This document shows, piece by piece, positions 1,530-25,348 of a stretch of DNA of 40,522 bases (its first letter is position 1; every line of letters starts with the position of its first letter). The position numbers and the translations under genes were made by a program. Under the pieces are notes generated by a model that searched no databases, was not told the origin of the DNA, and worked only from the letters and a program-made list of their open reading frames with translations. The DNA is from Bacteroidales bacterium (GTDB lineage Bacteria; Bacteroidota; Bacteroidia; Bacteroidales; UBA7960). The stretch lies in assembly GCA_007132585.1 (NCBI GenBank), contig SLOJ01000220.1, forward strand, positions 1 through 40,522, given 5' to 3'.

Positions 1530-1669
1530 TTCTTCTAAAAATTTCTCAGAATTATATTAATTTTCTACAAATATTTTCCTTACTATTTGAAATTCAATAA
1601 TTAAGACAAAAAAGGATTTCCCCAATACTTTTTAACAAAAATTCAAAAAAAAAAGTTAATAAAAAAATT

Positions 1670-2611: not shown

Positions 2612-2702
2612 AGTTTTTTCTCCTTTCCAAAAAAGGAATAAGATTTTTTAAAAAAAAATTATATTATCAATAGCTGTCCGGCTATAAAAAAATTCTATTT
2701 TA

Positions 2703-3479
2703 TCAATTAATTAGAGTTATCCTGCCATCGAGTTCTGCCCGAATTTTTTCTCCTCTGTCATCAACTTGTTGCATATGCATAATAATAGCATCTCTTACAC
2801 GTATGCCGAGTAATTCATAATTTATTGGCTGTAGGAAAAAATTCATTAAATCTCCACCTCCTGCAAGGTAATCAGACGTTAAAACTTTATACGATCTGTT
2901 GATATCAAATTCTTCTTCTTGTATAAGCATCTCATAAGGCTCATCATCCTTTATGGTTAATCTTATACCGGATACCGGCATACCCCTCTCGGCTGCTGCA
3001 AGATATTCAAACAGCTGTCGTGTTTTTTGTCCGCTGATTGTAACAACAACCATTTCATTTTCAAATGGTAAAAGTTCAAATACTCGTTCATAGGTTATTT
3101 CTCCTTTGGGTAGCGGCACTCTGAGTCCACCATAGTTAAGCAGACAAAAGTCAATAGCTTTATCATCATCGGGTTGGTATAAATCCTTGCCTATATCAAA
3201 AACGAGATCTGCAACAAAATTATTAAGCAGGCCTTCAGGAGTTCCCCGCTCCATAACCTGGGCCGATTGAACAAGCACCCGGCTCATGTCAGCCTCAAGA
3301 GTTTCGCGGTATTCCCGGATTATTTTCTCCTGCTCAGTATCTTTTTCCGGAACATTAATGCTATCAAGCAATATCAATTCACCCTTAAGAGTGTATTGTT
3401 TCTGGTCAGTACCTCTGCAAGAAGCTAAAACTATTAGCCCCCATAGCAACAGCCACAGGGAAATCCGGGCATTAAGCAT
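2703..3479 (-). CDS. 5'-nucleotidase C-terminal (substrate-binding) domain lipoprotein
   Basis: Lipobox 'LASC'; 'NYGGLR', 'LLPFEN', 'TSDYLAGGGD' motifs; adjacent to the metallophosphoesterase half. Confidence 0.92.
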   Translation of the reverse strand: MLNARISLWLLLWGLIVLASCRGTDQKQYTLKGELILLDSINVPEKDTEQEKIIREYRETLEADMSRVLVQSAQVMERGTPEGLLNNFVADLVFDIGKDLYQPDDDKAIDFCLLNYGGLRVPLPKGEITYERVFELLPFENEMVVVTISGQKTRQLFEYLAAAERGMPVSGIRLTIKDDEPYEMLIQEEEFDINRSYKVLTSDYLAGGGDLMNFFLQPINYELLGIRVRDAIIMHMQQVDDRGEKIRAELDGRITLIN

Positions 3480-3718
3480 TTTTAAATTATTTTATTGAGA
3501 AGTTTAACTACAATGATAATACTAATTGAAATAAAAAACAACCTAAATTAACCAGATGATATAATTTAAAATTAATATACAGAAGCGTGTTTAAAAAAGT
3601 TGTCGCACAGATAAATTATGCTTATAATCAATAAGTTAAACGAAGATGAGCTAACATGTTACAAATCAGGCAGAATAGTGTAACTGATAAAAATTCAATG
3701 AGTTGTACGGGTTGATAT

Positions 3719-5221: not shown

Positions 5222-6280
5222 TTACCATGAATTTTCAGGATTTTTAAAAAAATACAGAATTTCATTTCCTATCAAAGACATGTCGAAATTATCGTGAGGC
5301 AATGATGGTGCTCTCAAACCTTTGATAAAAAACTTATTTCCCTGGAATACCCTTGCTTCATCCCATAAATCTCGGGAAATAAAAGCTTGCAGAAGTTTCT
5401 GACCGCCCTCGATAATCACTGACTGAATGTCCTTTTCTGCCAATATTTTCAATATATTATCAAGAAATGCTTCTTCGGCAAAATCTGTTTGAATCCATTG
5501 TGTATTTTCTCTTGAAAAGTTTTTATTGTTATTGAAAACAATGGTTTTCTGGCTATTGTCGAAAAGGCTCAGCGAATCGGATAATGTGAGATTTTCGTCT
5601 AAAACGATACGCAAGGGTTGTTTTCCGCTCCAGTCTCTTACATTCAGCTTTGGATTGTCTTTGAGGGCAGTAATTGTTCCTACCATAATTGCCTGTTCTT
5701 CGGTTCTCCACTTATGAACCAGCATTCTTAATTTTTCGGAGGTAATCCAGGTGGGTCGGGCAGGGGTTCCGGGTAAACGTTCAATGTCAATAAGTGCATC
5801 TGCTGTTTGAGCCCATTTTAAAATTATATATGGTCTCTTTTTTTTATGAAATGTAAAGAAGCGTTTGTTGAGTAACATTGCCTGCTGGCGCAAAATACCT
5901 ACATCAACTTTCACTCCATGATTTCTGAGTATCGATATACCATTTCCGGCAACAGCATCATAAGGATCAATACTGGCAACTACCACATGAGGTATTTTGG
6001 TTTTAATAATTAAATCGGTACATGGTGGAGTTTTCCCCCAGTGACAACAAGGTTCAAGGCTAACATAGAGAGTTGATTTTTTGAGCAGATCTTTTTCCTT
6101 TACAGAGTTTATTGCGTTTACCTCGGCATGCGCTTTTCCATATTCCCTGTGATAGCCTTCTCCTATAATTCTGTCATTGTAAACTATAACACTACCAACC
6201 ATCGGGTTTGGTGCTGTCTTTCCCAAACCCTCTCTTGCCAGCTCAATGCAACGCTGCATGTAGAGTTCTTGTTGTATCAT
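5222..6280 (-). CDS. ribD: Riboflavin biosynthesis deaminase/reductase RibD
   Basis: 'PNPMVG', 'HAEVNA', 'LEPCCHWGKTPPC', 'IEGG' motifs. Confidence 0.97.
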   Translation of the reverse strand: MIQQELYMQRCIELAREGLGKTAPNPMVGSVIVYNDRIIGEGYHREYGKAHAEVNAINSVKEKDLLKKSTLYVSLEPCCHWGKTPPCTDLIIKTKIPHVVVASIDPYDAVAGNGISILRNHGVKVDVGILRQQAMLLNKRFFTFHKKKRPYIILKWAQTADALIDIERLPGTPARPTWITSEKLRMLVHKWRTEEQAIMVGTITALKDNPKLNVRDWSGKQPLRIVLDENLTLSDSLSLFDNSQKTIVFNNNKNFSRENTQWIQTDFAEEAFLDNILKILAEKDIQSVIIEGGQKLLQAFISRDLWDEARVFQGNKFFIKGLRAPSLPHDNFDMSLIGNEILYFFKNPENSW

Positions 6281-9776: not shown

Positions 9777-10961
9777 TCAGATAAATTCCAGAGTTACTTC
9801 TTTAAGAAACTTTTCTTCGAGTAAAGAAGCTATTTTTTTTGCCACACTACGTCGAATTTCCAGTTCAACCGGCAGATTAGGGTCCTGATGGGCAACGTTT
9901 ATAGCTGTACCAATGCATAGGTATATTTCATCACTTTCAAGCAGCAGTTTAATAATGCTATCGGCAGGTCCCTTGCCCAGCTCCGTTCGATCATTATATT
10001 TTTCAAGTATTCCGGATACTTTGCTTAATGTAAGAATTCCTTCGGTAACAAGTTCAACTCCTTCCATATGAGAAATAGGGGGAAGATCGTGGTCATCAAA
10101 CTCAAGCGTATCCTCGATGGGAAGGTTTAGTTTTTCTGAAATAATATCGGCAGTAGTACCTCCGCAAATAATCTTTTTGCCTTTAAAGTCTTTAACTTTG
10201 TTACCCAGATACTCATCTTTTTCTTTATCAAATGGAGGCCCTGAGCAAAGAAGCAATTTTCTGGGCTCACGAAAGTACACCACAACAGTGCTTATGTCAT
10301 CTTTTGATTGATATTCATCATTAGTGTGGGCGCGGTTAACAATTACCGATGCAAGTTTTGTTGCCGAAATATCCGGATGAGATGTGATTTGAGATAATAC
10401 CATATCGCGTGTATTCTCCCATCCGAAACCAAGCAGGTATTTGCCTTTTCCCAGGCCGCTCTGAGTTATTCCATCTGTAAGCATTATTATCCGGTCCTCC
10501 TTTAATGCCTTGAATGAGCATGCTTGTATTTCATTACTCCTTTTATCCTGGCTGTCAATTTTTATGGTATGCCAGTCAGGCTTAAGTTCTTCTTCATTAC
10601 GCACAATAATGCATTGAGGATTATCATAATTGATTATGGTTGTTTGACCATTATCTTCAATATCAATAATAGTAAATGTGGCATAGCTTATTTTTCTTTC
10701 ACTGCAAACCGGAAGGGTATTCATAATGATTTCAGCAATTTTATGCACATCTTTATGTTCGGCAGTAAAATTTATTGCCATGGTGGCGGTAAGTGTGGCA
10801 AGCAAATTAGCTTTTACACCATGGCCCATCCCATCCGACAATACCACTACTGTTCTGTTCTCTTCCTTAATCTTTCGTGTAAGAAAAACATCTCCGCAAA
10901 TACGCTCACCGATATGGTTTTTCTGCAATACACCAACTTCTATGAAAAAGGAATTATCCAT
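9777..10961 (-). CDS. SpoIIE/PP2C-type Ser/Thr phosphatase of the sensory hydrogenase-associated (HfsC-like) type
   Basis: 'CGD', 'LSDGMGHG', 'TDGI', 'DDIS' metal-binding motifs plus the C-terminal 'GPP...KIICGGTTA...LVTEGILTL...AHQ' extension. Confidence 0.93.
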   Translation of the reverse strand: MDNSFFIEVGVLQKNHIGERICGDVFLTRKIKEENRTVVVLSDGMGHGVKANLLATLTATMAINFTAEHKDVHKIAEIIMNTLPVCSERKISYATFTIIDIEDNGQTTIINYDNPQCIIVRNEEELKPDWHTIKIDSQDKRSNEIQACSFKALKEDRIIMLTDGITQSGLGKGKYLLGFGWENTRDMVLSQITSHPDISATKLASVIVNRAHTNDEYQSKDDISTVVVYFREPRKLLLCSGPPFDKEKDEYLGNKVKDFKGKKIICGGTTADIISEKLNLPIEDTLEFDDHDLPPISHMEGVELVTEGILTLSKVSGILEKYNDRTELGKGPADSIIKLLLESDEIYLCIGTAINVAHQDPNLPVELEIRRSVAKKIASLLEEKFLKEVTLEFI

Positions 10962-11020: not shown

Positions 11021-12877
11021 TTAGTCATTTTTCTTAACCTTTTTGTAGGTTTCTATGATAGAGTTGAGCATTTTTTCGGTACTTGATGCACCCTCACCCA
11101 GAGAAAAAGCTATCTGTTGTACCATCTTCAGGTTTTCGTCAATTACCTCGGTTACCCGGTTAATAATCTCCTCTTGTCTTACTTCGGCCACATACATATC
11201 GCGGAAAACAGCTCCCGCAATTTTATTGGGCTTTAGCGAGAAAACGCTTATGTTCAGTAACCCTTCATTAAAGTTTATATCTCTTCCGAGAATATTTTCA
11301 TCCTTCTGAAGCACGTAATTGAAAAGGTTGTAAATATTATAGGGTAGTAGTGTTTTTAAATCCGCTCCAATGAGTCCGGGTATTACTTCATTTATCATTT
11401 CGGCATCTTCACCTAAAGTATTAATAAATGAACTGTTTGATTCAATCACTTTAAGATTCTCATCAACAATAACCACAGCCGATGGAAGGTTATGCAACAG
11501 TGAAGAAATGGTTTCTGACTGGGTTTTTATTTTTTGATTATCTGTTTTAAGAAGTTTTTCATTTTCTTCCAGTTCCTTCCGGTTTTTTCTTAGCTTTTCA
11601 TTGTTGGCTTTTAGCGTTTTAATGAAATCCTGTTTGTTTTTAAGTGAATAGGTCAGGCACGTATCGGGTTTAGCCAGGCCTTGACTAACAGAAACGGCAA
11701 AATCGCGGCAGCTTCTGAACCCACAGGCGTTGCAAGATGATTTTTCATCAACTGATTTATCAACAGACTTAAGTATTTCTTCAATTTTTTCATCTGAAGG
11801 AATTTCAAGTCGTTGATCATCTGAGGTGAATGTCCGTGAAAGATCAAGATCTGAGAAGTAACTCATATCTTTTTCCCATTTTTTCTTATCAAAATTTTTC
11901 AACCTTTTTTTGGCATAGTCGATCACAAGTGTTTTCCTCAAAAACTTTCGGTTATCGGGTGTGGTTCCCGGGCCCATAAGACAGCCTTTATTGTAAAACA
12001 AATTGAAGTGTTTTTTCAATACTTCGGGTCCCTGACTGAATTCATCGATGGCATCCATTATATTAAATTTTCCATCGGTAGTAAGCACTGGTGATTCCAT
12101 CATATTTTCCGATATACCAGCAGCAGTTAAAATACCCTTACTCAGGGGGTAAAGTGATCCAAGATAACCTATGGGCTCATCAAAATCAGAATATTCAACC
12201 GTTGATTCCTTTATGTTTTTCTCATGAAACATTTGCCGCAATTCATGGAAAGTAAGCACTGCATCCACTTTTCTATTTCCTTTATGTCTGTTTGCTTCAT
12301 CTTTTGCCGAAACACATGGACCGATATAAACTACTCCAATATCAAGGCCAAATTTCTTTCTTACTACCATGGCAGTGGCCGTCATAGGTGTTACAATCGG
12401 ACTTAGATTGGTTGCCATTTCAGGATAAAATTTCTCTACATAAGACACAATTGACGGGCAATTTGCACTGATGTAATACTTTCCTTTAAAATTCGTAAAC
12501 AATTTATGGTATTCTTTTGCCACCAGATCTACACCAAATGAAACTTCATTCACGTAATTAAAACCCAGGGTTCGTATCATGTCTACGAATCTTATGTAAT
12601 CGGTAATATCAGGAAATTCACCACTGATGCTTGGATCAACAATTGCAGCTATCTTTTTTTCTGATTCAAGAAGTTTGAACGTGTCAGCGATTGAACTGGC
12701 GTATGATACGGCATTTACTGGGCAAACATTTAAACAGCTTCCGCATCCTATGCATCTGTCATGGTTAATCTCAGGGTTTTCATTATGTTTCGATACTGTA
12801 ATGGCCTGTACAGGACAAGCCCTGATACATGCATGGGATTGGTTACATTTTTCAAGATCAATATTTATCAGTTGCAT
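11021..12877 (-). CDS. Group C (sensory, HydS/HfsB-like) [FeFe]-hydrogenase-like protein with ferredoxin, FeS, coiled-coil and PAS domains; H-cluster motifs degenerate
   Basis: N-terminal CxxSxxCxxxCP and CxxCxxCxxxCP; L1 'ISANCPSIV', L2 'GPCVSAKDE', L3 'LFYNKGCLMGPG'; 'CNACGFRSC...C' FeS domain; PAS 'LPSAVVIVDENLKVIESNSSF'. Confidence 0.88.
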   Translation of the reverse strand: MQLINIDLEKCNQSHACIRACPVQAITVSKHNENPEINHDRCIGCGSCLNVCPVNAVSYASSIADTFKLLESEKKIAAIVDPSISGEFPDITDYIRFVDMIRTLGFNYVNEVSFGVDLVAKEYHKLFTNFKGKYYISANCPSIVSYVEKFYPEMATNLSPIVTPMTATAMVVRKKFGLDIGVVYIGPCVSAKDEANRHKGNRKVDAVLTFHELRQMFHEKNIKESTVEYSDFDEPIGYLGSLYPLSKGILTAAGISENMMESPVLTTDGKFNIMDAIDEFSQGPEVLKKHFNLFYNKGCLMGPGTTPDNRKFLRKTLVIDYAKKRLKNFDKKKWEKDMSYFSDLDLSRTFTSDDQRLEIPSDEKIEEILKSVDKSVDEKSSCNACGFRSCRDFAVSVSQGLAKPDTCLTYSLKNKQDFIKTLKANNEKLRKNRKELEENEKLLKTDNQKIKTQSETISSLLHNLPSAVVIVDENLKVIESNSSFINTLGEDAEMINEVIPGLIGADLKTLLPYNIYNLFNYVLQKDENILGRDINFNEGLLNISVFSLKPNKIAGAVFRDMYVAEVRQEEIINRVTEVIDENLKMVQQIAFSLGEGASSTEKMLNSIIETYKKVKKND

Positions 12878-12911: not shown

Positions 12912-13184
12912 TTATGATGATGAAGAATTTAAAAGTTTCTCTGCCAGCAAATCGGTAAGATTTTCATCATTTACATTGATAATTACTTCTTCATTGATTT
13001 TCATAACAGGTCCTTTATCGCATTTCGACATGCAATGTGCGCCTTTGAGAGTTACCTCGTCTTCCAGTTTTTGTTCTTTCAAAAAATCCTGGATCATGCG
13101 CACAAGATTTCTGTTGCCCCTCGAGAAACAACTACTTCCCATGCATATGACTATTGTGTGAGGTTTTTGGGTCATGATATCCAT
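12912..13184 (-). CDS. Thioredoxin-like [2Fe-2S] ferredoxin (HfsA-like)
   Basis: 'ICMGSSCFSRG' and 'HCMSKCDKGP' motifs; first gene of the ferredoxin-HydS-phosphatase operon. Confidence 0.92.
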   Translation of the reverse strand: MDIMTQKPHTIVICMGSSCFSRGNRNLVRMIQDFLKEQKLEDEVTLKGAHCMSKCDKGPVMKINEEVIINVNDENLTDLLAEKLLNSSSS

Positions 13185-13545: not shown

Positions 13546-14028
13546 ATGGACACTAAATTAAGTTCCATTTTTGAAAATTATCCCAATAAACAAAGGGATG
13601 ATCTCATACCTCTTTTGCACAGCATTCAGGATCAGTTTGGCTATTTATCGGAAGAGTTTATCATTGAAGTAGGCAATTATCTTAATATTTCGGTAAATAA
13701 AATTTATGGTGTTGCTACCTTTTATGATAATTTTCGTTTTGGCCCCAAAGGTAAGTTTCATATAAGACTTTGTCACGGTACTGCCTGTCATGTTGCTGGT
13801 TCTTCAAATATTCTTTCAGAACTGGAAAAACTTCTCCGAATAAGCAATGGAGAAACAGACAAAAACGGTTTGTTTAGCCTTGAAGTTGTTTCTTGTATAG
13901 GCGCCTGTGGACTGGCACCACTGATTGAGATCAACGAAGAATATTTCTCACAATTAACAACCGAATCCTTAAAAGACATTCTGAACCATTTCAGGGAAAA
14001 CCATAATAGTATTTATGAAGATCAATGA
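13546..14028 (+). CDS. hydC: HydC/NuoE-like [2Fe-2S] subunit of a multimeric hydrogenase-like complex
   Basis: 'IYGVATFY', 'LCHGTACHV', 'SCIGACGLAP'; overlaps the hydB start. Confidence 0.93.
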   Translation: MDTKLSSIFENYPNKQRDDLIPLLHSIQDQFGYLSEEFIIEVGNYLNISVNKIYGVATFYDNFRFGPKGKFHIRLCHGTACHVAGSSNILSELEKLLRISNGETDKNGLFSLEVVSCIGACGLAPLIEINEEYFSQLTTESLKDILNHFRENHNSIYEDQ

Positions 14029-15964
14029 TCGAAATGCGGTAAAAGAATTCCTCGTAAAAAAGGTTTTAAGAAATCCTGATCGTGATAAGGATACTGATAT
14101 CAGTAAACAACTCTCTCAGATAGGTCGCGACAGGATAACAAAACCACTCATTTATGTGGGTACATCTACCTGTGCTATTGCAGCAGGTGCTCAGAAAACA
14201 CATGATGCAATTGCAAAATACCTTACTGATTCGCATCATGATGTTGATCTTGTAAAAGGAGGTTGTGTGGGTTTTTGTAAAGCAGAACCATTGGTTGATG
14301 TCCAGTTGCCTGGTAAAGCACGCATTTCTTTCGGAAATATCAAAGCAGATATGGTTCCTGAGCTGCTGGATGAGATACTGAATAATCATGTGCCAACTGA
14401 TATGGTGCTTGGGCAATACCGAAGTGCTGTTCATCAGCCATGGGATAACGTATATTTCCTTGATGAGCTTGATTTTAACAAGCATCAGAAAAAAATACTG
14501 ATGGCTAATTGTGGCATCATTGATCCGGTTTCAGTTTCAGAATACATTGCAAGGGGGGGCTATCAGGCATTTGCAGATACCATAACCCGATATACGCCTT
14601 CGCAGGTATGTGATCTGGTTGAAGAAAGCATGCTTGCGGGTAGAGGAGGAGGTGCTTATATTGCAGGTAAAAAGTGGAAAATATCGCTCAATACGGTCAG
14701 CGATCAAAAGTATTTTGTTTGCAATGCAGTTGAAAGCGACCCCGGTAGTTACATGAATCGGGTAATAATGGAAAGTGATCCGCACCAGCTTATTGAAGCT
14801 ATCCTTATAGCATCATATGCTATTGGAGCTTCCAAAGCTTTTATTTTTACCCGTCGCGAGTTTCCCCTTGCCATTGAACGGTTAAATCAAGCTCTTAAGG
14901 AAGCCGATGAATATGGTGTTCTGGGACATAATATTTTTGATTCGGGTGTAAATATTGACATTGTAGTAAAGGAGGGAGCGCGAGCCTTTGTTTGTGGTGA
15001 AGAAACAGCACTTAATAACAGTATCGAAGGAAAACGTGCAATGCCGGTTTCCAAACCACCATTTCCGGCCATAAAAGGTTTATGGAATAAACCTACCATA
15101 GTAAATAACCTTGAAACGATTATCAATGTGCCTATGATCATGAAAAATGGTCCTGATTGGTTTAAAGGCATTGGCAATGAGAAAAGCAAGGGAACAAAAT
15201 TGTTTACATTAAGTGGTAAGGTAAAAAACTATGGCACTATCGAAGTGGAGATGGGAATTAGTTTCAGAGATATAGTATACAAAATTGGTGGTGGTATAAA
15301 AGATAAGCAGGATTTTAAAGCTATTATACTGGGAATTAACAGTGGTAGTTATGTAACAGAAAAAACACTGGATACCTTAGTTGACTTTGATGCACTGAAA
15401 CAAATCGGATCTGCCCTTGGAAGCGGTGCATGTGTTGTTGTTGACAAGAACTCCTGTATGCTGGATCTTGCCAAGTTTTTTACACGGTTTTTTAAAAATG
15501 AAAGTTGTGGAAAGTGTATTCCATGTCGCGAGGGAACCGCACGTATGCTTGAAATAGTTGAAACAGCTACCCGTAAACCTGAAAAAGAAAATTCTTTTCA
15601 AACCCTTGAACGCTTTAAAGGAATTATGCAGTTAAAGGGTATGGCTGACGTTATGAAGGATACCAGCCTGTGTTCGCTCGGAAAATCTGCTCCAAATGCT
15701 ATACTGAATACCCTTGCCAATTTTAAGTCGGAATTTGATGCACATGTTTTTGAAAGAAAATGTCCGGCAGGTGTTTGCCGCGATTTAAAAACCTACACGA
15801 TAGATGTTGATATGTGCACAGGATGCACTGCATGTTTTAAAAAGTGTCCGGTAGATGCAATTATAGGCACGCCAAGGCAACCACATTTTATTGTTCAGGA
15901 TAAATGCATTGCCTGCAATGCATGTTATGAGGTATGTAAGTTTAATGCTGTATTAGTGGAATAA
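14015..15964 (+). CDS. hydB: HydB/NuoF-like flavin/FeS subunit with divergent FMN/NAD loops
   Basis: N-terminal Trx-like domain, 'GRGGG', 'AFVCGEETAL', 'ESCGKCIPCREG...LCSLG', 'H...CPAGVC', two C-terminal [4Fe-4S] motifs. Confidence 0.92.
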   Translation: MKINDRNAVKEFLVKKVLRNPDRDKDTDISKQLSQIGRDRITKPLIYVGTSTCAIAAGAQKTHDAIAKYLTDSHHDVDLVKGGCVGFCKAEPLVDVQLPGKARISFGNIKADMVPELLDEILNNHVPTDMVLGQYRSAVHQPWDNVYFLDELDFNKHQKKILMANCGIIDPVSVSEYIARGGYQAFADTITRYTPSQVCDLVEESMLAGRGGGAYIAGKKWKISLNTVSDQKYFVCNAVESDPGSYMNRVIMESDPHQLIEAILIASYAIGASKAFIFTRREFPLAIERLNQALKEADEYGVLGHNIFDSGVNIDIVVKEGARAFVCGEETALNNSIEGKRAMPVSKPPFPAIKGLWNKPTIVNNLETIINVPMIMKNGPDWFKGIGNEKSKGTKLFTLSGKVKNYGTIEVEMGISFRDIVYKIGGGIKDKQDFKAIILGINSGSYVTEKTLDTLVDFDALKQIGSALGSGACVVVDKNSCMLDLAKFFTRFFKNESCGKCIPCREGTARMLEIVETATRKPEKENSFQTLERFKGIMQLKGMADVMKDTSLCSLGKSAPNAILNTLANFKSEFDAHVFERKCPAGVCRDLKTYTIDVDMCTGCTACFKKCPVDAIIGTPRQPHFIVQDKCIACNACYEVCKFNAVLVE

Positions 15965-15977
15965 TTTTAATCCGTAT

Positions 15978-17699
15978 ATGAGTTTTAACATTCAAGTAAA
16001 TAACAAACCTGTTGAGGTACACGAAGGTGAAATACTATTGAATGCCTTGCGCAGAAATGGTATTAAAATTCCTACTTTGTGCTATATGCATGGTTTTACG
16101 CCATCCGGTGCCTGCAGACTATGCGTCGTGGAGATAGATGGGAAAAGAGATCTTGTAACGTCCTGCGCTTATCCCGTTGAACCGGAAATGGTTGTAAAAA
16201 CCAATTCTGCAAGGGTAATAAAAGCCAGAAAGTCACTGGTAGAAATGTTGCTTTCCAATCATCCCGATGATTGCTTGTATTGCGAGCGCAACGGTAATTG
16301 CGAATTGCAATGGCTTGCCGAAGAAATGAATATTAAAGAGAGAAAATATTTCAGCAGCAAGCGTTCTGATAAACGTGATCATTCCAGCCCGAGTGTTTAT
16401 CGCGATCCTGCAAAGTGTATTCTTTGCAGCAGATGTGTAAGGGTTTGTGAAGAAGTTCAACTGGTTACAGCTATAGAGTTTATTTCCAGGGCTGATAAAA
16501 CTTCTGTAAATTCAGCTTTCAGCAAAGGACTCAATATTTCAAGTTGTATCAATTGCGGACAATGTATAATGGTTTGCCCTACCGGGGCACTTGTTGATAT
16601 TTCTCATATTGAGAAGGTGCAATCTGCTCTGGCAAGTGACAAAAAATACCCTGTAGCTTTTTTGTCACCCGCTTTTGTGGCATCCGTGTCCGATCATTTC
16701 AATTTAAAACCCTCTGATAAACCTGCAGGATTAATTATTGCAGCATTAAAAAATATGGGTTTCAGAAAAGTTTATGATCTGGGTTGGGCAGTGGATATGA
16801 ATATTCACCTTGAAGCTTCGCTATTGCTGGAAAGGAGTAAGAAAAAAGATACTGTTACTCCATTGTTTTCTTCCTGTTGTCCTGCCTGGATTAAATACGC
16901 TGAAGAATTTGTTCCGGAAATGATCTCCGATATCTCAACGGTTAAATCGCCTCAACAGTTGATGGGTTATATAGTTAAGAATCACGAAAAAGCTGAGGCA
17001 GAAAAGAAAAAACAGCAGCTATATACAGTTTCCCTGATGGCTTGTGTTGCCAATAAATTTGAAGGCTCAAGGGAGGGAAATACACGTAAGGGTGAATCGG
17101 AAGTTGATGCTACTTTAACCATCAGGGAGTTTCTGAAAATGCTGCGTAGTTATGGCATAAACTTACTTCGCTTTGATCCGGTTATCGCTGATAATCCTTT
17201 TGATCACTCATCTGCAGCCGGCTATCAGGTATCTTATTCAGGGGGTAAAGCTGAAGCCGTAGCCATGCATTTAAATCATCTGATAAACGGAGAGAAAAAA
17301 AACGGGCCTAAATTCACCCCACCTAAAAATCCCGGTAGTAAAAAAGAAGTTAAACTTTCAATTGGAAAACAGGAGTTTGGTTTTGCATGGGTAAGCGGAA
17401 TAGGAGAAGCACAAAAATATTTTGATCAGCTTGTAACTGAAAAAAGAAAAGACATTCATTACGTAGAGGTAATGGCTTGTCCGGGCGGTTGCGCTGGAGG
17501 AGGAGGACAACCCGTTTATTATTTCCAGGATAAACACAAAGCACGCAAAAAAACAGGTCAGGATCTTGAAAAAAGTCTAAAATCCCGAAAACCATCCCAA
17601 AACATACATATGTTGGAGTATTTGAATGTTCGTTTGGCTCGCAAAGAAGAAAAAGATGTATTACAAACCCGCTTCAAACAAAGAGATGTGATAAAATAA
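15978..17699 (+). CDS. hydA: HydA-like group A [FeFe]-hydrogenase subunit with a divergent active-site pocket
   Basis: [2Fe-2S] 'PTLC...GACRLC...TSC', His-ligated 'HPDDCLYCERNGNC', 2x[4Fe-4S]; L1 'FSSCCPAW', L2 'MACVANKFE', L3 'EVMACPGGCAGGGGQP'. Confidence 0.9.
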   Translation: MSFNIQVNNKPVEVHEGEILLNALRRNGIKIPTLCYMHGFTPSGACRLCVVEIDGKRDLVTSCAYPVEPEMVVKTNSARVIKARKSLVEMLLSNHPDDCLYCERNGNCELQWLAEEMNIKERKYFSSKRSDKRDHSSPSVYRDPAKCILCSRCVRVCEEVQLVTAIEFISRADKTSVNSAFSKGLNISSCINCGQCIMVCPTGALVDISHIEKVQSALASDKKYPVAFLSPAFVASVSDHFNLKPSDKPAGLIIAALKNMGFRKVYDLGWAVDMNIHLEASLLLERSKKKDTVTPLFSSCCPAWIKYAEEFVPEMISDISTVKSPQQLMGYIVKNHEKAEAEKKKQQLYTVSLMACVANKFEGSREGNTRKGESEVDATLTIREFLKMLRSYGINLLRFDPVIADNPFDHSSAAGYQVSYSGGKAEAVAMHLNHLINGEKKNGPKFTPPKNPGSKKEVKLSIGKQEFGFAWVSGIGEAQKYFDQLVTEKRKDIHYVEVMACPGGCAGGGGQPVYYFQDKHKARKKTGQDLEKSLKSRKPSQNIHMLEYLNVRLARKEEKDVLQTRFKQRDVIK

Positions 17700-17748: not shown

Positions 17749-19785
17749 ATGGATCTTCAACAAAAAAATCAATTTATTTATACGGTTAAAGACCGTTGTA
17801 AGGTTTGCTATACATGTGTAAGAGAATGTCCTGCCAAAGCCATTCGAATCGTTAACGGGCAGGCTGAAATAATTGCAACAAGGTGTATTGCTTGTGGTAA
17901 TTGTGTTAAGGTTTGCAACAGAGATGCCAAAATGTTTTCCTTTGCAATTGACAGGGTTAAAAAGCTTATAAAAAGCGAAGATAAGGTGGCTGCAATTATT
18001 GCTCCCAGCGTGGCAGGTGAGTTTATTGATATTTCAGATTACCAAACCCTTGTGGGGATGATAAGAATGCTTGGATTCGACCATGTTAATGAAGTTGCTT
18101 TTGGTGCCGAGCTGGTTGCAGATAAATATAAAGAACTGCTCAGGAAAGATCAGAAACAAACCTTTATTTCAACAAGTTGTCCGGCAATAGTATCTTATGT
18201 TGAAAAGCATCATCCACAGATAGTTAAATCACTTGCTCCTATTGTATCTCCAATGATTGCTACTGCCAGGGTACTGCATGATATACATGGCAATGATTTA
18301 AAGATTGTGTTTATTGGTCCGTGCATAGCAAAAAAAAATGAAGCAGCCCTCGGGCAATTTAAAGAAATGGTGCACGAAGTGATTTCTTTTACCGAGCTAA
18401 GAAGAATGTTTGATGAGAAAAACATAAACCCCGAACATCCTGATATTGTACCATCAGAATTTGATCAGCCCATAGCAGGTAAAGGTTCGGTTTTTCCAAT
18501 AAGCGGGGGTATGTTGCAAACCGTTGACCTGGAAGAAGATTTTCTCAATGGAGAAATTGTTGTTGCAGAAGGCAGGCAGGATATTATTGAAGTACTGAAA
18601 GAATTTGAAGAGGGGTATCTTGAAGCCAAATTATTCGATTTGCTTTGTTGCAACGGTTGTATGAATGGTCCGGGAATGAGTAGTCGTCAGAAGTTTTTTC
18701 TTAAAAGAAAAAACATCAGCAATTTTGCAAAAAGACAATTTGACCGGCTTGATCAGGCTGAATGGGAGAAAAATAAAAAGAAATACTCTAATATAAAGCT
18801 TGATAGATATTTTATAGCCGATGACCAACGATATCCTTCAAACTTTTCAGAAGAAGAGATAAATAAGGTTAAAGAAAAACTGGGTATTAAAGGGCAGGAT
18901 GATGAACTTAACTGCACTGCTTGCGGATATGATACTTGCCATGAACACGCGGTAGCTATTTTGAAAGGAATTGCTGAAACAGAAATGTGCCTGCCTTATA
19001 CTATTGATAAGCTACATAAATACATTACCGATCTAGATGTTTCCAATAAAAAACTGGCATCTACCCAAGATGCTCTCAAGCAATCTGAAAAACTGGCATC
19101 AATGGGCCAGTTGGCTGCCGGTATTGCCCATGAGGTCAATAATCCCCTGGGGGTGGTAATCATGTACGCTCATCTTTTACTTGATGAAATAGAGCCCGAT
19201 TCACCTCATTACAGAGACCTAAAGCTTATTGTTGATCAGGCTGACCGGTGCAAGAAAATTGTGGGCGGATTACTTAACTTTGCAAGAAAAAGCAAGGTAA
19301 ATATTACTGAGGTAAAAATCAGATCGCTCATTAAAAATAGTTTGAAGGCTGTAATGATGCCTTCAAACGTTGATTTAAACATAGAACTGGATACCCCCCA
19401 GGAATTTATTGCCTGCGATCATGATCAAATGGTTCAGGTATTTTCAAACCTTGCAAAAAATGCAGTGGATGCTATGCCCGATGGTGGCGAATTGCTTGTA
19501 AAAGTTGAAGATGATCCCAATATCACCGGAGGCTTGGTATTTACAGTCAAAGATACAGGCACCGGTATTTCTCCTGAAAACCTGGAGAAGATGTTTGAAC
19601 CCTTTTTCACCACTAAAGAAGATGGAAAAGGAACCGGTTTAGGTTTGCCAATCATGTATGGTATTGTAAAAATGCATAAGGGAAATATCAAGGTTGATTC
19701 AAACACTGATCCGGAGAAAGGACCCTGCGGAACCAGCTTTTATGTTAGCCTTCCCGGAGTACCGGAAAAAATTAATGCACATTGA
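17749..19785 (+). CDS. Sensory [FeFe]-hydrogenase-histidine kinase fusion (group C, kinase-linked)
   Basis: 2x[4Fe-4S]; L1 'ISTSCPAIV', L2 'GPCIAKKNE', L3 'DLLCCNGCMNGPG'; FeS 'CTACGYDTC...MC'; NtrB-type H-box 'AHEVNNPL', 'DTGTGI', 'FEPFFTTK', 'GTGLGL'. Confidence 0.93.
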   Translation: MDLQQKNQFIYTVKDRCKVCYTCVRECPAKAIRIVNGQAEIIATRCIACGNCVKVCNRDAKMFSFAIDRVKKLIKSEDKVAAIIAPSVAGEFIDISDYQTLVGMIRMLGFDHVNEVAFGAELVADKYKELLRKDQKQTFISTSCPAIVSYVEKHHPQIVKSLAPIVSPMIATARVLHDIHGNDLKIVFIGPCIAKKNEAALGQFKEMVHEVISFTELRRMFDEKNINPEHPDIVPSEFDQPIAGKGSVFPISGGMLQTVDLEEDFLNGEIVVAEGRQDIIEVLKEFEEGYLEAKLFDLLCCNGCMNGPGMSSRQKFFLKRKNISNFAKRQFDRLDQAEWEKNKKKYSNIKLDRYFIADDQRYPSNFSEEEINKVKEKLGIKGQDDELNCTACGYDTCHEHAVAILKGIAETEMCLPYTIDKLHKYITDLDVSNKKLASTQDALKQSEKLASMGQLAAGIAHEVNNPLGVVIMYAHLLLDEIEPDSPHYRDLKLIVDQADRCKKIVGGLLNFARKSKVNITEVKIRSLIKNSLKAVMMPSNVDLNIELDTPQEFIACDHDQMVQVFSNLAKNAVDAMPDGGELLVKVEDDPNITGGLVFTVKDTGTGISPENLEKMFEPFFTTKEDGKGTGLGLPIMYGIVKMHKGNIKVDSNTDPEKGPCGTSFYVSLPGVPEKINAH

Positions 19786-19807: not shown

Positions 19808-20206
19808 ATGCTTAAAATTGAGAAAAAGAAGATTTTACTGGTTGATGATGATCCTGATTATCTCTTTCAGCTTACCATAGCACTGGAAGATATGGGTTTT
19901 GAAGTAATTGCAGCACAAACTCAGCAGGAAGCTGAAAATATTGTTGACAAAATGAAACCTGATCTGGCCATTCTTGATTTAATGATGGAAAATCAGGATA
20001 CTGGATTTATCCTTTGCCATCTGATAAAAAATAAATATCCTGATGTGCCCATCATCATCGCCTCGGCTGTTACAGCTGAAACAGGATTGTTGTTTGATGT
20101 TGAATCGGAAGAAGATCGTCAGTGGATCAAAGCAGATCTTTTTCTTGATAAAGGCATAAGAAATGACCAGCTTCAAAAGGAAATCAATAAATTGCTCAAA
20201 ATATAA
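19808..20206 (+). CDS. Single-domain response regulator (receiver only)
   Basis: 'ILLVDDD', 'ILDLMM' phosphoacceptor, 'SA', conserved Lys in 'LDKG'; no output domain. Confidence 0.92.
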   Translation: MLKIEKKKILLVDDDPDYLFQLTIALEDMGFEVIAAQTQQEAENIVDKMKPDLAILDLMMENQDTGFILCHLIKNKYPDVPIIIASAVTAETGLLFDVESEEDRQWIKADLFLDKGIRNDQLQKEINKLLKI

Positions 20207-20209
20207 GCA

Positions 20210-21331
20210 ATGGGAAAGCTAAATCTGCTTGTGGTTGATGATGAACCAGGAATCAGAAGTGGTATAAAACGTATTCTGGAAAGTTTCTCGGTAAGCTATC
20301 CTTTCATGGATGAAGACTTCGAATTTGATGTGCTGGAAGCCGAAACCGGAGAGGAAGCCATTGAGTTACTTGATAATTACTTGTTTGATATTGTGCTGCT
20401 TGATAACAAACTACCCGGGATTCAAGGGGTTGAAGTACTTGAGTATATTAAAAGTCAAAGTATTGATGCCATAGTGGTAATGATTACTTCATATGCATCG
20501 CTTGATCTGGCGGTAAAAGCAACCAAAAGCGGGGCTTATGATTTTGTGCCAAAACCGTTTACACCCAAAGAATTGAGAAGTTGTCTTGAGAATATTGCCA
20601 AGCAATTGTTTCTTAGGCGAATGACTCAAAAACTGCAGGTAGAAGGTAAACAAATAAGATTTCAGTTTCTATCAGTCCTTTCGCATGAATTAAAATCACC
20701 TATCAATGCCATTGAAGGGTATCTTAATCTCATGGAAACAAAAAAGAAGGGCGAAAAGATTGATGATTATGCCGAAATGATTCAGCGTTCTTTGGCAAGG
20801 GTGCAGGATATGAGAGATTTGATAATGGACCTGCTTGATTTTACGAAAATCGAATCAGGTAAAAAACAGCGTAACATAAAACCTGTTTATTTGTCTGAAA
20901 TAGCTCGTCAGGCTATTGACTTGATTCAACCGCTTTGTATCCAGAAAGACATTGATATACATTTGAATTGTAATGAAAAAATAACACTTAAAGCAGATCG
21001 TCAGGAACTCGATATAATTCTCAATAACCTGCTTTCAAACGCAGTAAAATACAATAAACAGAATGGGCGTATCGACCTTACGCTAAAAAAGGAGAAAGAT
21101 GAGGTAGTACTTAATGTAAGTGATACAGGTATTGGGATGGAAAAGGAAGATATAGACAAGCTTTTTGAAGATTTTGTGCGCATAAAAAGTGAACAAACAA
21201 AAAATATAAGCGGTACAGGATTAGGTTTATCCCTGGTGAAAAAAATCGCCGATCTCTACAATGCAAAAATTCAGGTAGAAAGTGAACCGGGAAGTGGAAG
21301 CACATTTACAATCAGGTTTCCGGGAAATTAA
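20210..21331 (+). CDS. Cytoplasmic REC-HisKA-HATPase hybrid kinase
   Basis: N-terminal receiver 'VVDDE...LLDNKLP...PKPF'; 'SHELKSPI', 'NLLSNAVKYN', 'DTGIG', 'GTGLGL'. Confidence 0.94.
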   Translation: MGKLNLLVVDDEPGIRSGIKRILESFSVSYPFMDEDFEFDVLEAETGEEAIELLDNYLFDIVLLDNKLPGIQGVEVLEYIKSQSIDAIVVMITSYASLDLAVKATKSGAYDFVPKPFTPKELRSCLENIAKQLFLRRMTQKLQVEGKQIRFQFLSVLSHELKSPINAIEGYLNLMETKKKGEKIDDYAEMIQRSLARVQDMRDLIMDLLDFTKIESGKKQRNIKPVYLSEIARQAIDLIQPLCIQKDIDIHLNCNEKITLKADRQELDIILNNLLSNAVKYNKQNGRIDLTLKKEKDEVVLNVSDTGIGMEKEDIDKLFEDFVRIKSEQTKNISGTGLGLSLVKKIADLYNAKIQVESEPGSGSTFTIRFPGN

Positions 21332-21353
21332 TTATAAATATTATTTATACCAA

Positions 21354-21992
21354 ATGGACCCACAAAAAAGTAAAGATCTTCCAGGAAAGACCATTGAACG
21401 TCTTAGCCAATACAGGAGAATTCTTTTTAACAGTATAAACGAGGGTAAAGTAAATGTATATTCACATGAGCTTGCCCGCATGATGAATCTTACTCCCGTG
21501 CAGGTACGTCGTGATCTTATGTTGATCGGGTATTCGGGTAGCCAGAGCAAAGGCTATGTGATAAAAGATCTCATCAGCCTTATCGGTAAGATCATTGACA
21601 GTGATGAACCGCAGAAAGTGGCCATTGTTGGTATGGGTAACCTGGGGCGGGCAATAACAAGTTATTTCTCCGGTAAAAGAGAACGTTTATCAATTGTTGC
21701 AGCTTTTGATAACGATATGCAAAAAGCCAATCGCATTATAGCAGGTGTTCCGTGTCATCATGTAAACAAACTAAATGAAATACTTCCGGCTGAAGGTATA
21801 AAAATTGCAATACTTACATTAGCGCCGGAAGCAACCAATGAAGTGGCTAAAATGCTTTTTGATGCAGGAATAAAGGGAATTCTTAATTATACATCAGTAC
21901 CCCTTACAGTTCCCGAAGGAGTATTTCTGGAGGAATATGATATTGTTACTTCTCTTGAAAAGCTGGCGTTCTTGGTTAAACAGGATATGTAA
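21354..21992 (+). CDS. rex: Redox-sensing (NADH/NAD+) transcriptional repressor Rex
   Basis: 'TIERLSQY', 'QVRRDL...G..G...KGY' winged HTH; Rossmann 'VGMGNLGRA', 'GILNY'. Start moved to ATG 21354 because the longer ORF overlaps the upstream kinase. Confidence 0.96.
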   Translation: MDPQKSKDLPGKTIERLSQYRRILFNSINEGKVNVYSHELARMMNLTPVQVRRDLMLIGYSGSQSKGYVIKDLISLIGKIIDSDEPQKVAIVGMGNLGRAITSYFSGKRERLSIVAAFDNDMQKANRIIAGVPCHHVNKLNEILPAEGIKIAILTLAPEATNEVAKMLFDAGIKGILNYTSVPLTVPEGVFLEEYDIVTSLEKLAFLVKQDM

Positions 21993-22030
21993 GTTCATTA
22001 ACTTTTTTATAACAAAAACAGATGTAAAAA

Positions 22031-22951
22031 ATGAAAGTTTTTCATGATTCACAGGAAGCGAAGGAACATGTAAAAAATACTGTTGTTACTACAGGCTCTT
22101 TTGACGGCGTGCATATTGGTCATAAAGTTATTATTGAAAGATTGAAACAAATTGCTAATGAAATAGAAGGTGAGTCAACCCTGGTGACTTTCCACCCACA
22201 TCCGCGAAAAGTATTATACCCTGAGCAAAAAGATCTTAAACTTATCAATTCTCAGGATGAGAAAATCAAACTGCTTGCTAAAACAGGACTCGACAACCTT
22301 GTGATTATACCCTTTTCAAAAGAATTTTCAAAAACAACATCTCATGATTTTATAACCGATATCTTAATTGGTCAGCTAAAAGCCAAAGTTATAATCGTAG
22401 GTCAAAATCATCATTTTGGACACAACCGGTCAGGTGATTACTCATATTTGTACAAGTTAAGCCAGGATCTTGGTTTCAGGGTAGAGGATATTCCTTTACA
22501 GGATATTGAAAATGAAACGGTCAGTTCTACAAAGATCCGCAAGGCTTTACTGGAAGGAAACATTATGAGAGCAAACGCTTACCTTGATCACCAGTATATC
22601 ATTCGTGGAATTTTTTGCGATTCGCCGGAATCAGACGATTTGAAAAATCAAAAATTTTTCAGAATTTATAACAGAGAAGAAGAAAAACTTATACCACCTC
22701 CCGGCATTTATGCAACAAGCACGGTATGCAGCGATGAGTATCTTAAATCTATGAGTATTATAAGAGAAGATCATAGCGGAAAGCGTATTGTAGATACTAC
22801 TCTTTTATATGATAATGTTTTGCTTCATGACGTAAGGGTTACAATCTTTTTTTATAAAAGAATTAAAGGTCAGGAAGCCTTTGTGGAAGGTGAAATTAAT
22901 GAATCAGAACTTAAAGATGCAATAGAGGATGTTGACGAATTACTCTATTAA
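22031..22951 (+). CDS. ribF: RibF-like FAD synthetase (FMN adenylyltransferase intact, riboflavin kinase domain degenerate)
   Basis: 'GSFDGVHIGH', 'TFHPHP', 'HHFG', 'VSSTKIR'; the C-terminal domain lacks GxPTAN. Confidence 0.85.
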   Translation: MKVFHDSQEAKEHVKNTVVTTGSFDGVHIGHKVIIERLKQIANEIEGESTLVTFHPHPRKVLYPEQKDLKLINSQDEKIKLLAKTGLDNLVIIPFSKEFSKTTSHDFITDILIGQLKAKVIIVGQNHHFGHNRSGDYSYLYKLSQDLGFRVEDIPLQDIENETVSSTKIRKALLEGNIMRANAYLDHQYIIRGIFCDSPESDDLKNQKFFRIYNREEEKLIPPPGIYATSTVCSDEYLKSMSIIREDHSGKRIVDTTLLYDNVLLHDVRVTIFFYKRIKGQEAFVEGEINESELKDAIEDVDELLY

Positions 22952-23920: not shown

Positions 23921-25348
23921 ATGATATACCGCCCTGAAAATTACAGTATTAAGGATCAAAGGATGAAGCCATTCATTGATCCTGATGAAATCTGGAATTT
24001 TATCAATACAGCAAAAGGAGATAAAAGCCGGATCAGGGAGATTATAAAAGCTTCTCTTAATAAAAAACGATTATCATTAGAGGAAACAGCCATACTGCTT
24101 AATGCTGATGATCCTGAATTAATTGAAGAGATCAAAGAGGGAGCGCGCACACTTAAGGAGAGGGTTTATGGCGAAAGGATTGTACTTTTTGCCCCGCTTT
24201 ATGTGGGCGACCTTTGCACAAACAATTGCCAGTATTGTGGTTTCAGAGCCGAAAATAAAGGCATGAAGCGTATTACTTTAAGTCGTGAAGAACTCATTGG
24301 TGAAACCACTGCACTTATTGATCAGGGCCATAAACGATTAATTCTTGTTTACGGTGAACATCCGAAATATTCTGCCGATTTTATTGCGGAAACCGTAAAG
24401 ATTGTTTATAGCGTAAAACATGATAATGGTGAAATACGAAGAGTAAATATAAATGCCGCTCCGTTTGACATAAATGGTTTTCGCACCATAAAAGATTCAG
24501 GTATAGGCACTTTCCAGATCTTCCAGGAAACTTACCACGAACCCACTTACCAGAAAGTACACCTTGGTGGAATTAAAAGAAATTACGACTGGCGCCTTAC
24601 ATCGCTTGATCGTGCCCAGGAAGCTGGTATTGATGATGTAGGTATAGGTGCACTTTTCGGACTCTATGACTGGCGGTTTGAGGTACTTGGGCTCGTTAGG
24701 CATGTAAACCACTTTGAAGCTGTTTATAAAGTGGGGCCGCATACTATTAGTTTTCCAAGGATTCAAAATGCTCTCTCACTTAATATTGATAAAGATCATC
24801 TTGTAAAGGATGATGAATTTGTAAGACTGGTATCTATTCTGCGGCTGGCAGTGCCTTATACGGGTATGATACTCACTGCACGAGAGCCACACCACATTCG
24901 CGATCAGATATTAAGGTTCGGGGTATCGCAAATTGATGGAGGAACAAACCTTGAACTGGGTGGCTATAGCAAAGAAAAAAAAGACACCCAGGATCTTACC
25001 ATGGAGCAGTTTCAAATAAACGACAACCGCTCTTTGAATGAGATTATGGATGAGCTGATCAAAACAGGATATATACCATCATTTTGCACTGCATGTTACA
25101 GGCTTGGACGCACAGGTGAGCATTTCATGGAATTTTCTGTTCCGGGTTTTATCAAAAGGTTTTGTTCACCCAATGCCTTGCTTACCCTGGCAGAGTATCT
25201 TGAAGACTATGCGCCAACAGATACCAAAGAAAATGGCTATAAACTAATTAACCAGAAAATATCTCAACTGGCTCAGCACCAAAATGTAGATAAGCTTAAA
25301 GAAAAAGTTCAGTTGGTTAAAAATGGTAAACGTGATTTGTATTTCTGA
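23921..25348 (+). CDS. hydG: [FeFe]-hydrogenase maturase HydG (radical SAM)
   Basis: 'FAPLY..DLCTNNCQYC' radical SAM motif, 'FQETY', 'HTISFPR', C-terminal auxiliary cluster 'SFCTACYR...FC' absent from ThiH, ending 'KRDLYF'. Confidence 0.96.
   Translation: MIYRPENYSIKDQRMKPFIDPDEIWNFINTAKGDKSRIREIIKASLNKKRLSLEETAILLNADDPELIEEIKEGARTLKERVYGERIVLFAPLYVGDLCTNNCQYCGFRAENKGMKRITLSREELIGETTALIDQGHKRLILVYGEHPKYSADFIAETVKIVYSVKHDNGEIRRVNINAAPFDINGFRTIKDSGIGTFQIFQETYHEPTYQKVHLGGIKRNYDWRLTSLDRAQEAGIDDVGIGALFGLYDWRFEVLGLVRHVNHFEAVYKVGPHTISFPRIQNALSLNIDKDHLVKDDEFVRLVSILRLAVPYTGMILTAREPHHIRDQILRFGVSQIDGGTNLELGGYSKEKKDTQDLTMEQFQINDNRSLNEIMDELIKTGYIPSFCTACYRLGRTGEHFMEFSVPGFIKRFCSPNALLTLAEYLEDYAPTDTKENGYKLINQKISQLAQHQNVDKLKEKVQLVKNGKRDLYF

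Follow-up and report, generated by a model that had tools for sequence, protein, structure and literature searches.

The flavoprotein subunit HydB (BfuB) is known from the bifurcating HydABC complexes of T. maritima, A. woodii and T. kivui, with counterparts in NiFe-HydABCSL, NfnABC and StnABC, and the solved bifurcating structures used here for comparison were PDB 7p5h, 7q4v, 8a6t, 7t2r, 9bp5/9n5u and 8oh5. The mechanism by which HydABC/Bfu enzymes bifurcate electrons with a single flavin mononucleotide (FMN) is still argued; cryo-electron microscopy papers have placed it at the flavin and two neighbouring clusters. Five loops were named as wrapping FMN and nicotinamide adenine dinucleotide (NAD(H)), and the motif AFM, a Phe preceding VCGEE and the motif GGPSG were given as marks of bifurcating enzymes (Feng et al., 2022, PMC8880783), with the underlying criteria for bifurcating and non-bifurcating enzymes taken from Losey et al. 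(2020, PMC7311640). A stretch of 40,522 nucleotides from a Bacteroidales bacterium (contig SLOJ01000220.1, assembly GCA_007132585.1), termed the window in the following, encodes a HydB in which each of the five loops surrounding FMN and NAD(H) carries substitutions, within a hydC-hydB-hydA operon on the forward strand that is followed by a fusion of a HydS-type sensory hydrogenase domain with a histidine kinase (Table 1).

The overall architecture of the window HydB is that of its bifurcating relatives. It is of the same length class, has the same domain order and Fe-S columns and is encoded in the same gene order as the HydABC, NiFe-HydABCSL, NfnABC and StnABC systems, its best matches among solved chains being NfnB, HydB and StnB (E-values 1e-149 to 1e-177). 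The Pfam domains Complex1_51K, SLBB and NADH_4Fe-4S, i.e., the set that defines a NuoF/Nqo1-type flavoprotein, are all present together with a C-terminal pair of [4Fe-4S] clusters, and the scores lie above the curated cut-offs (PF01512, 129.5 bits against 31.2; PF10589, 86.4 against 23.5; PF22461, 27.4 against 27). From N- to C-terminus the protein has a [2Fe-2S] domain, the flavin domain, the SLBB domain, a [4Fe-4S] cluster and the two C-terminal [4Fe-4S] clusters, which is the order of a complete bifurcating-type BfuB. An AlphaFold2 model, which is ligand-free, has the BfuB fold with a mean predicted local distance difference test score (pLDDT) of 90.4 and template modelling scores of 0.8-0.93 to solved BfuB/HydB chains; its blocks of lowest confidence include residues 321-330 and 341-350 (pLDDT 67-68). 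Two sets of homologues were compared, a clade set of 106 sequences with variant loops, from which P0099 (501 amino acids) was dropped, and a canonical set of 57 sequences from P0111-P0274 picked by GGPSG, PG[AE][FY]M and a length of at least 560 amino acids. Seventeen columns hold Cys or His in at least 85% of the canonical set and were taken as Fe-S ligand columns; all 17 are kept in the window protein and in at least 94% of the 106 clade members, which bears out the statement of an initial annotation of this DNA that all Fe-S motifs, including the two C-terminal [4Fe-4S] clusters, are intact and the Fe-S wire is conserved.

The same annotation had pointed out rewritten FMN- and NAD-binding loops, and the strings quoted in it are present opposite the canonical motifs of solved chains. 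In HMMER alignments to solved NfnB, HydB and StnB chains, MLAGRGGGAYIAG from residue 206 (nucleotide 14630) stands opposite GLRGRGGAGFPTG, CNAVESDPGSYMNR from residue 236 (nucleotide 14720) opposite CNADEGDPGAFMDR, and GARAF from residue 321 (nucleotide 14975) opposite GAGAF, and the SLBB motif is likewise replaced from nucleotide 15332. Compared with the solved BfuB/HydB chains, to which it is 38-47% identical (Foldseek), the window HydB has the same residues in contact with FMN and NAD(H) but differs by D239V, Y278F, Y283F, G323R and G342A, by the exchanges AFM to SYM, GGPSG to GINSG and MGSGG to LGSGA, and by loss of the first Arg of GLRGRGG. This Arg (R208) is found in 56 of 57 canonical sequences and is replaced by varying small residues in the clade.

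Table 1. Genes of the hydrogenase region and elements of HydB in the window; positions are nucleotides of the window.
Feature	Position	Strand	Remarks
hydC (NuoE-like [2Fe-2S])	13546..14028	+	Pfam; overlaps hydB start
hydB/bfuB, NuoF-type flavoprotein subunit with remodelled FMN/NAD(H) pocket, 649 aa	14015..15964	+	
N-terminal thioredoxin-like [2Fe-2S] domain of HydB	14165..14278	+	C53, C84, C88 kept
Loop 1, Gly-rich, residues 206-223	14630..14683	+	GLRGRGG first Arg to A208; GRGG, aromatic 215, K220 kept
Loop 2, residues 236-249, CNAVESDPGSYMNR	14720..14761	+	D239V, A245S, F246Y, D248N; N237, E240, D242 kept
Strand FIFTRREF, residues 276-283	14840..14863	+	Y278F, Y283F; R280, E282 kept
Loop 3, residues 321-351, GARAFVCGEETAL...KRAMPVSKPPFP	14975..15067	+	G323R, G342A; F325, E329, E330, K347, F350 kept
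Loop 4, SLBB domain, residues 440-445	15332..15349	+	GINSGS replacing GGPSGG
Loop 5, residues 468-472	15416..15430	+	LGSGA replacing MGSGG
Flavin-adjacent [4Fe-4S] cluster of HydB	15506..15673	+	C498, C501, C504, C553 kept
C-terminal 2x[4Fe-4S] ferredoxin-like domain of HydB	15815..15937	+	all eight Cys (601-611, 631-641) kept
hydA, [FeFe] hydrogenase subunit	15978..17699	+	
HydS-type sensory hydrogenase domain fused to histidine kinase	17749..19785	+	
Receiver protein, receiver-kinase, Rex, RibF	19808..22951	+	syntenic with operon in related loci
90-aa thioredoxin-like [2Fe-2S] protein	12912..13184	-	ahead of second HydS-like gene
Second HydS-like protein	11021..12877	-	
SpoIIE/PP2C phosphatase	9777..10961		on the opposite strand to hydB; after second HydS-like gene

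AFM and GGPSG, which the initial annotation had named as signatures of bifurcating enzymes, are indeed used in this way, together with the Phe (PMC8880783; PMC7311640). At the position of the Ala or Glu that marks bifurcating enzymes (position 232 in T. maritima) all 106 clade sequences have Ser245, and GGPSG is replaced by GINSG, with I441 and N442 in 100% of the 106. The Met at T. maritima position 234 is kept (M247, 106/106), as are the Phe at position 367 (F325, 102/106) and the additional N-terminal [2Fe-2S] and C-terminal 2x[4Fe-4S] domains. Among the four features given for non-bifurcating HydB, namely Thr/Ser at 232, Lys/Ser/Ala at 234, Tyr at 367 and fewer Fe-S domains, Ser245 is the only one found. 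Judged by these published sequence criteria, the window HydB is neither bifurcating, with three of five marks, nor non-bifurcating, with one of four. It resembles S. aciditrophicus HydAB and S. wolfei Hyd1ABC in having Ser at the Ala/Glu position and in lacking GGPSG, but in contrast to these non-bifurcating HydB proteins it keeps the Met, the Phe, the N-terminal [2Fe-2S] and the C-terminal 2x[4Fe-4S] domains (PMC7311640). With complex I NuoF/Nqo1 and the NAD-dependent formate dehydrogenase subunit FdsB it shares the flavin-binding fold and the contact residues, whereas these proteins lack the extra Fe-S domains, have Tyr and Lys in place of the Phe and Met, and possess neither Arg323 nor Val239. 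In gene content the locus corresponds to the sensor-linked BfuABC-T clusters ('sub-type V', in the Bacteroidota variant with two bfuT genes), which have a HydS-like gene upstream of hydCBA and a kinase-fused HydS downstream; the available portions of that account treat gene order, H-cluster motifs and Fe-S domains and describe no change in the flavin pocket of BfuB (PMC11406978). No published description of the HydB pocket variant was found in a search that covered articles but not the supplements of PMC7311640, PMC8880783 and PMC11406978, whose larger alignments could contain such sequences.

The substitutions are fixed in a well-defined clade. Among the 120 best homologue clusters that were aligned, 106 (P0005-P0110, 55-95% identity) have the variant loops, and the next 14 (P0111-P0124, 53-56% identity) have canonical ones. 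Twelve positions of HydB discriminate the two sets, with one residue in at least 90% of the clade and another in at least 80% of the canonical set: D239V, A245S, D248N, Y278F, Y283F, G323R, G342A, L408T, G441I, P442N, M468L and P562A. Eight of these fall in the loops, five segments totalling 75 of the 649 residues; three of the twelve are circular, as they had been used for picking the canonical set, and without the positions used for picking, five of nine discriminating positions lie in the loops compared with 61 of 631 others (Fisher one-sided p = 9e-4). The loop substitutions are not chance drift. Synonymous sites are saturated among 26 clade genes (pS about 0.78), and the ratio of nonsynonymous to synonymous polymorphism (pN/pS) is lower for the loops, at 0.10, than for the remainder of HydB, at 0.25; purifying selection thus acts more strongly on the loops, which would not be expected of a disused pocket. 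Among 150 representatives of 50%-identity clusters drawn from 1.8 billion proteins, the alignment columns examined have Val239 and Ile-Asn at 441-442 only in one 170-amino acid fragment that itself belongs to the variant clade, and Arg in the G323 column occurs in this fragment and in one other protein. The variant residues are not common in verified active HydB proteins, a finding that would have spoken against the initial annotation, since they are absent from three solved chains and from the 57 canonical sequences, a set itself picked on two of the motifs.

The residues that touch the cofactors directly have been retained. K220, N237, E240, D242, R210, G211, G212, E329, E330, K347, N364, N365, T368, R280 and E282 are kept in 102-106 of the 106 clade sequences, and the adenine-site aromatics Y215 and F350 exchange within the clade only between Tyr and Phe. 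HydB thereby has the complete contact set of a NuoF/Nqo1-type protein, i.e., the Lys, the Asn, the Glu/Asp triad, the start of the GEE helix, the two aromatics and NN..T. Roles were reported for the FMN-binding Asn and Glu and for the two aromatics that sandwich the adenine (PMC8880783; PMC11829005), as well as for the Glu-Ser-Glu/Asp triad near the nicotinamide and for the Gly-rich loop (PMC11677225; PMC6560083). In FdsB, Lys157, which corresponds to K220, is essential for binding of the nicotinamide cofactor, and Glu259, which corresponds to E330, binds the 2'-hydroxyl of the adenosine and excludes NADP, its replacement resulting in NADP activity (PMC10671435). E330 is Glu in all 106 clade sequences, and seven of the 57 canonical sequences have Ser at this position; as E330 is kept throughout the clade, NAD(H) rather than NADP(H) is expected to be the nucleotide. 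In the flavin fold the sheet order is 4-1-2-3 (PMC11677225), from which the ends of strand 1 (D239), strand 2 (Y278, R280, E282, Y283) and strand 3 (G323, F325) would adjoin at the FMN-binding edge. On this view, the concerted change from Asp-Tyr-Tyr to Val-Phe-Phe resembles the loss of a single hydrogen-bonded set, and strand 3 would contribute a new cation.

The clade is monophyletic in a tree of 115 sequences (support 1.0, stem of 0.29 substitutions per site) and falls within a group (support 0.989) to which canonical Bacteroidota sequences belong as well; support for its closest sister relations is lacking (0.09 and 0.25). It is restricted to one family: the back-translated loop-2 pattern NAVESDPGSYMNR matched three of 401 genomes sampled across the order, all of this family. 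A search within the family gave a match in 76 of 77 genomes; among the matches listed, 66 reach at least 55% identity (five of them partial genes), seven (genera g241 and g243) 50-52% and three only 46-48%, and one genome has none. Four loci of the 50-52% group, from genera without the variant (L069, L070, L074 and L075), carry HydB and HydA of entirely canonical sequence beside the same HydS-kinase, and with these as sister loci among the listed matches the remodelling looks like an in-place divergence of a sensor-linked operon within the family. The data are best explained by a single origin of the HydB variant within this Bacteroidales family from a canonical ancestor of the bifurcating type. 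A canonical HydB of about 590 amino acids is encoded elsewhere in the source genome, at a contig end (L002), and in all ten variant-bearing relatives checked, which represent three genera. The short non-bifurcating HydB type is a separate gene of the source genome (L003); this locus (943-3649) is a third hydrogenase module with a NuoE-like protein, a short NuoF-like protein of 385 amino acids showing the non-bifurcating marks TFK, GAY and GGASG, and a HydA whose P1 motif is TSCSPGW, as in the solved A. woodii HydA. Two loci, L071 and L072 (G031, G173), form a deep branch of the variant clade and have AARAY or AAKAY, ISGEE or VSGEE (Cys327 to Ser) and GINSN or GINSK in HydB and Ser at the HydA Lys position; no HydS-kinase was found between their hydA and the receiver gene. 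For HydC no clade-specific fixed change was found in a comparison whose canonical group (<55% identity) wrongly held these two variant loci.

Changes were also found in HydA, with a different distribution. In the window HydA the P2 motif is MACVANKFE (nucleotides 17037-17063), with Ala for Pro and, at residue 359, Asn for the Lys of the H-cluster environment, while the Cys ligands of the H-cluster and the P3 motif are intact. Its P1 motif is SSCCPAW compared with TSCCP in canonical relatives of the family, and in the segment IHLEASLLLER (nucleotides 16803-16835) Leu stands opposite two Glu of the canonical ..EE.aE.. segment in an alignment with T. kivui and T. maritima; one of these two Glu we take to be part of the proton path. 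The variant loci L052 and L068 have SSDCPAW in HydA, with Asp replacing the proton-relay Cys. The initial annotation had seen the HydB change as parallel to a Lys to Asn change in HydA, and this holds in part. All 44 unique variant loci have the remodelled HydB. At the position of the H-cluster Lys, 23 have Asn, 16 Lys, two Ser, one Glu and one Ala, and in one locus the position is uncovered; canonical HydB loci with an adjacent HydA covering the motif have Lys in six of six. Since the HydB change is common to all variant loci and the HydA Asn is confined to 23 of them, the HydB change is older and broader, and the HydA Lys was lost within the variant clade at a later time and repeatedly. Conservation within the block is lowest for HydA, at 52-77% identity compared with 63-89% for HydB in most loci.

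A second sensor-linked HydABC lineage is present in Bacteroidales at L030 (6962-10671), L031 (2-3288), L033 (6959-10635) and L036 (6611-10562). Its HydB has Arg, Lys or Gln at the position of Asp239, D/E/I-P-G-A-F in place of GAGAF, and GGMVG, GGVSG or GGPLG in place of GGPSG. In the HydA of these loci, His or Ala replaces the proton-relay Cys, and the H-cluster Lys has given way to Ala, Met or Arg. As both kinds of change occur together in this lineage as well, a rewritten HydB coupled with a degenerate HydA is seen twice. Related forms are found among the 50%-cluster representatives (P0127, P0128, P0155, P0159 and P0170).

The reading that we favour, by a narrow judgement, is that HydB of the window is a specialised paralogue with a retuned and still functional FMN/NAD(H) site and not one that has lost it. 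With the FMN and ADP-ribose scaffold unchanged, binding of FMN and of NAD(H), not NADP(H), would most likely be kept. The substitutions, their fixation, the family restriction, purifying selection, the retained contacts and the canonical paralogue are observed; the retention of the cofactors and the kind of functional change are inferred. A neofunctionalised HydB (BfuB) subunit would work within the sensor-linked HydCBA complex, in which the shell around the isoalloxazine and nicotinamide rings would have been rebuilt and the cofactor scaffold left as it is. At the C-terminal edge of the Rossmann-like sheet, Val-Phe-Phe has taken the place of a polar set of Asp, Tyr and Tyr (D239V, Y278F, Y283F), and the neighbouring strand has gained an Arg (G323R); of the three bifurcation marks, two have been exchanged (AFM to SYM, GGPSG to GINSG), and the nicotinamide-contacting loop is altered (MGSGG to LGSGA). 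The consequence might be altered redox properties of the flavin, an altered geometry of hydride transfer or an altered gating between FMN and its two neighbouring clusters, by which the complex would couple NADH, ferredoxin and H2 in a manner unlike that of the canonical HydABC encoded elsewhere in the same genomes.

Several points weigh against this reading of a retuned site. The window HydB lacks two of the three sequence marks that have been published for bifurcating enzymes. The strong conservation of the HydB pocket shows that the pocket is in use but not thereby that it is used for FMN and NADH. D239, which presumably equals Asp94 in Thermus/Aquifex numbering and contacts the flavin ribityl chain, is lost. 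The placement of R323, I441 and N442 relative to FMN and nicotinamide derives from strand topology and published descriptions, and a bulky Arg or Ile could partly fill the pocket. HydA diverges faster than HydB and has repeatedly lost the H-cluster Lys, as might be expected if the complex had ceased to be an ordinary hydrogenase. In one metatranscriptome run short contigs of low depth are identical or nearly identical to hydB 14184-14323 and 14581-14745 and to hydA 16010-16215, which is a weak hint of transcription, as carry-over of DNA is possible and the uncovered parts are uninformative.

An alternative that can overlap with the retuned site, and that we regard as unlikely, is that the complex serves as a low-turnover module for redox or H2 sensing which feeds the HydS-kinase, PP2C and Rex circuitry and is not a metabolic hydrogenase. 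In all related loci with sufficient flank the operon lies between two HydS-type sensors, kinases, receivers and Rex, and within the window a PAS-kinase-receiver hybrid is also encoded upstream of the operon on the opposite strand; a layout with two HydS-type genes and Rex has been in print since 2024 (PMC11406978). The canonical HydB elsewhere in the source genome and its ten relatives, the drift at the H-cluster Lys of HydA and the second lineage, in which a rewritten HydB pocket and a degenerate HydA stand beside the same sensors, would be in line with a signalling role. However, the canonical operons L032, L069, L070, L074 and L075 share the sensor neighbours, so that the context alone is no indication of such a role, and the H-cluster Cys ligands and P3 motif of the window HydA are intact. 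We know of no sensory HydABC, which also weighs against it.

The initial annotation had proposed that flavin or nucleotide binding is altered or lost; the loops argue for altered, whereas the contacts kept in nearly all clade sequences and the stronger purifying selection on the loops speak against lost. Taken to its end, the second half of this proposal would mean that the flavin site, the nicotinamide site or both are plugged or lost, with HydB acting as an Fe-S wire in an NAD(H)-independent complex, e.g., a ferredoxin-only or electron-relaying module. Changes in all five pocket loops, the loss of Asp239, the introduction of a long Arg and an Ile into pocket-lining strands and loops, the retention of every Fe-S ligand, the absence of the H-cluster Lys from HydA in 27 of 43 loci with data and the low model confidence at residues 321-330 and 341-350 are all compatible with this. 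In a disused site K220, E330 and the aromatics that stack on the adenine should have been lost, but the FMN-, ribose- and adenine-binding residues are kept in 102-106 of 106 sequences and pN/pS is lower in the loops than in the rest of HydB, which makes a lost site improbable.

A broader scenario, which we consider doubtful, would join these observations as follows: the sensor-linked HydABC would no longer be a metabolic bifurcating hydrogenase, the HydB pocket would have been rebuilt first, the H-cluster Lys of HydA would then have become dispensable and been lost several times, and the complex, with its conserved Fe-S chain linking two retuned ends, would process redox or H2 signals for both flanking HydS proteins and Rex, with L030, L031, L033 and L036 having arrived independently at a similar state.

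Less probable again is that the pocket has switched its hydride partner to NADP(H) or another dinucleotide, or accepts flavin adenine dinucleotide (FAD) in place of FMN. The net charge has moved toward positive (D239V, D248N and G323R, partly offset by R208A), which could favour an additional phosphate, and ribF downstream of rex is syntenic in most related loci; yet the NAD-selecting Glu E330 is kept in 106 of 106 sequences (for its role see PMC10671435), owing to which a switch to NADP(H) was judged unlikely, and the ribF synteny holds in the second divergent group too and may be inherited gene order. A decaying pseudogene or an assembly artefact, for which nothing speaks beyond the unusual motifs, is ruled out by the open frame of 649 amino acids, by the same motifs in 44 unique loci from independent assemblies, by purifying selection and by three DNA runs.

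For the argued mechanism of single-FMN bifurcation, a natural variant of this kind could help to test electron-pair splitting, as the whole Fe-S architecture and the direct contacts are kept, two of the three marks are replaced, the polar Asp-Tyr-Tyr set is gone, an Arg is added and a canonical paralogue in the same genomes constitutes an internal control. Should the complex turn out to behave like an ordinary one, the published marks would have no diagnostic value. In this Bacteroidales family, function may be over-assigned by annotation pipelines in which all operons of this kind are labelled bifurcating hydrogenases.

Further observations concern the surroundings of the operon. hydB is covered by DNA contigs from three runs with few differences, and the DNA runs that contain the stretch are labelled as soda lake, salt lake or alkali sediment metagenomes. 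The 35 related records retrieved are without exception metagenome-assembled genomes. For the thioredoxin-like protein encoded at 12912-13184, similarity to the NuoE-type thioredoxin-like [2Fe-2S] fold is confined to the C-terminal half of the fold; its gene, which heads the divergent HydS2-PP2C operon, is syntenic in related loci. The FAD synthetase gene ribF (22031-22951) follows rex in almost all related loci with sufficient flank and does so in the second divergent lineage as well, with 41-90% identity across loci; this may reflect inherited gene order or a tie to flavin supply. A ribD gene lies at 5222-6280 on the reverse strand of the window. Near the hydrogenase island, at 23921-25348 on the forward strand, a protein of 475 amino acids with radical S-adenosylmethionine and BATS domains is encoded, which may be an H-cluster maturase like HydG or HydE, or else an enzyme related to ThiH or BioB.

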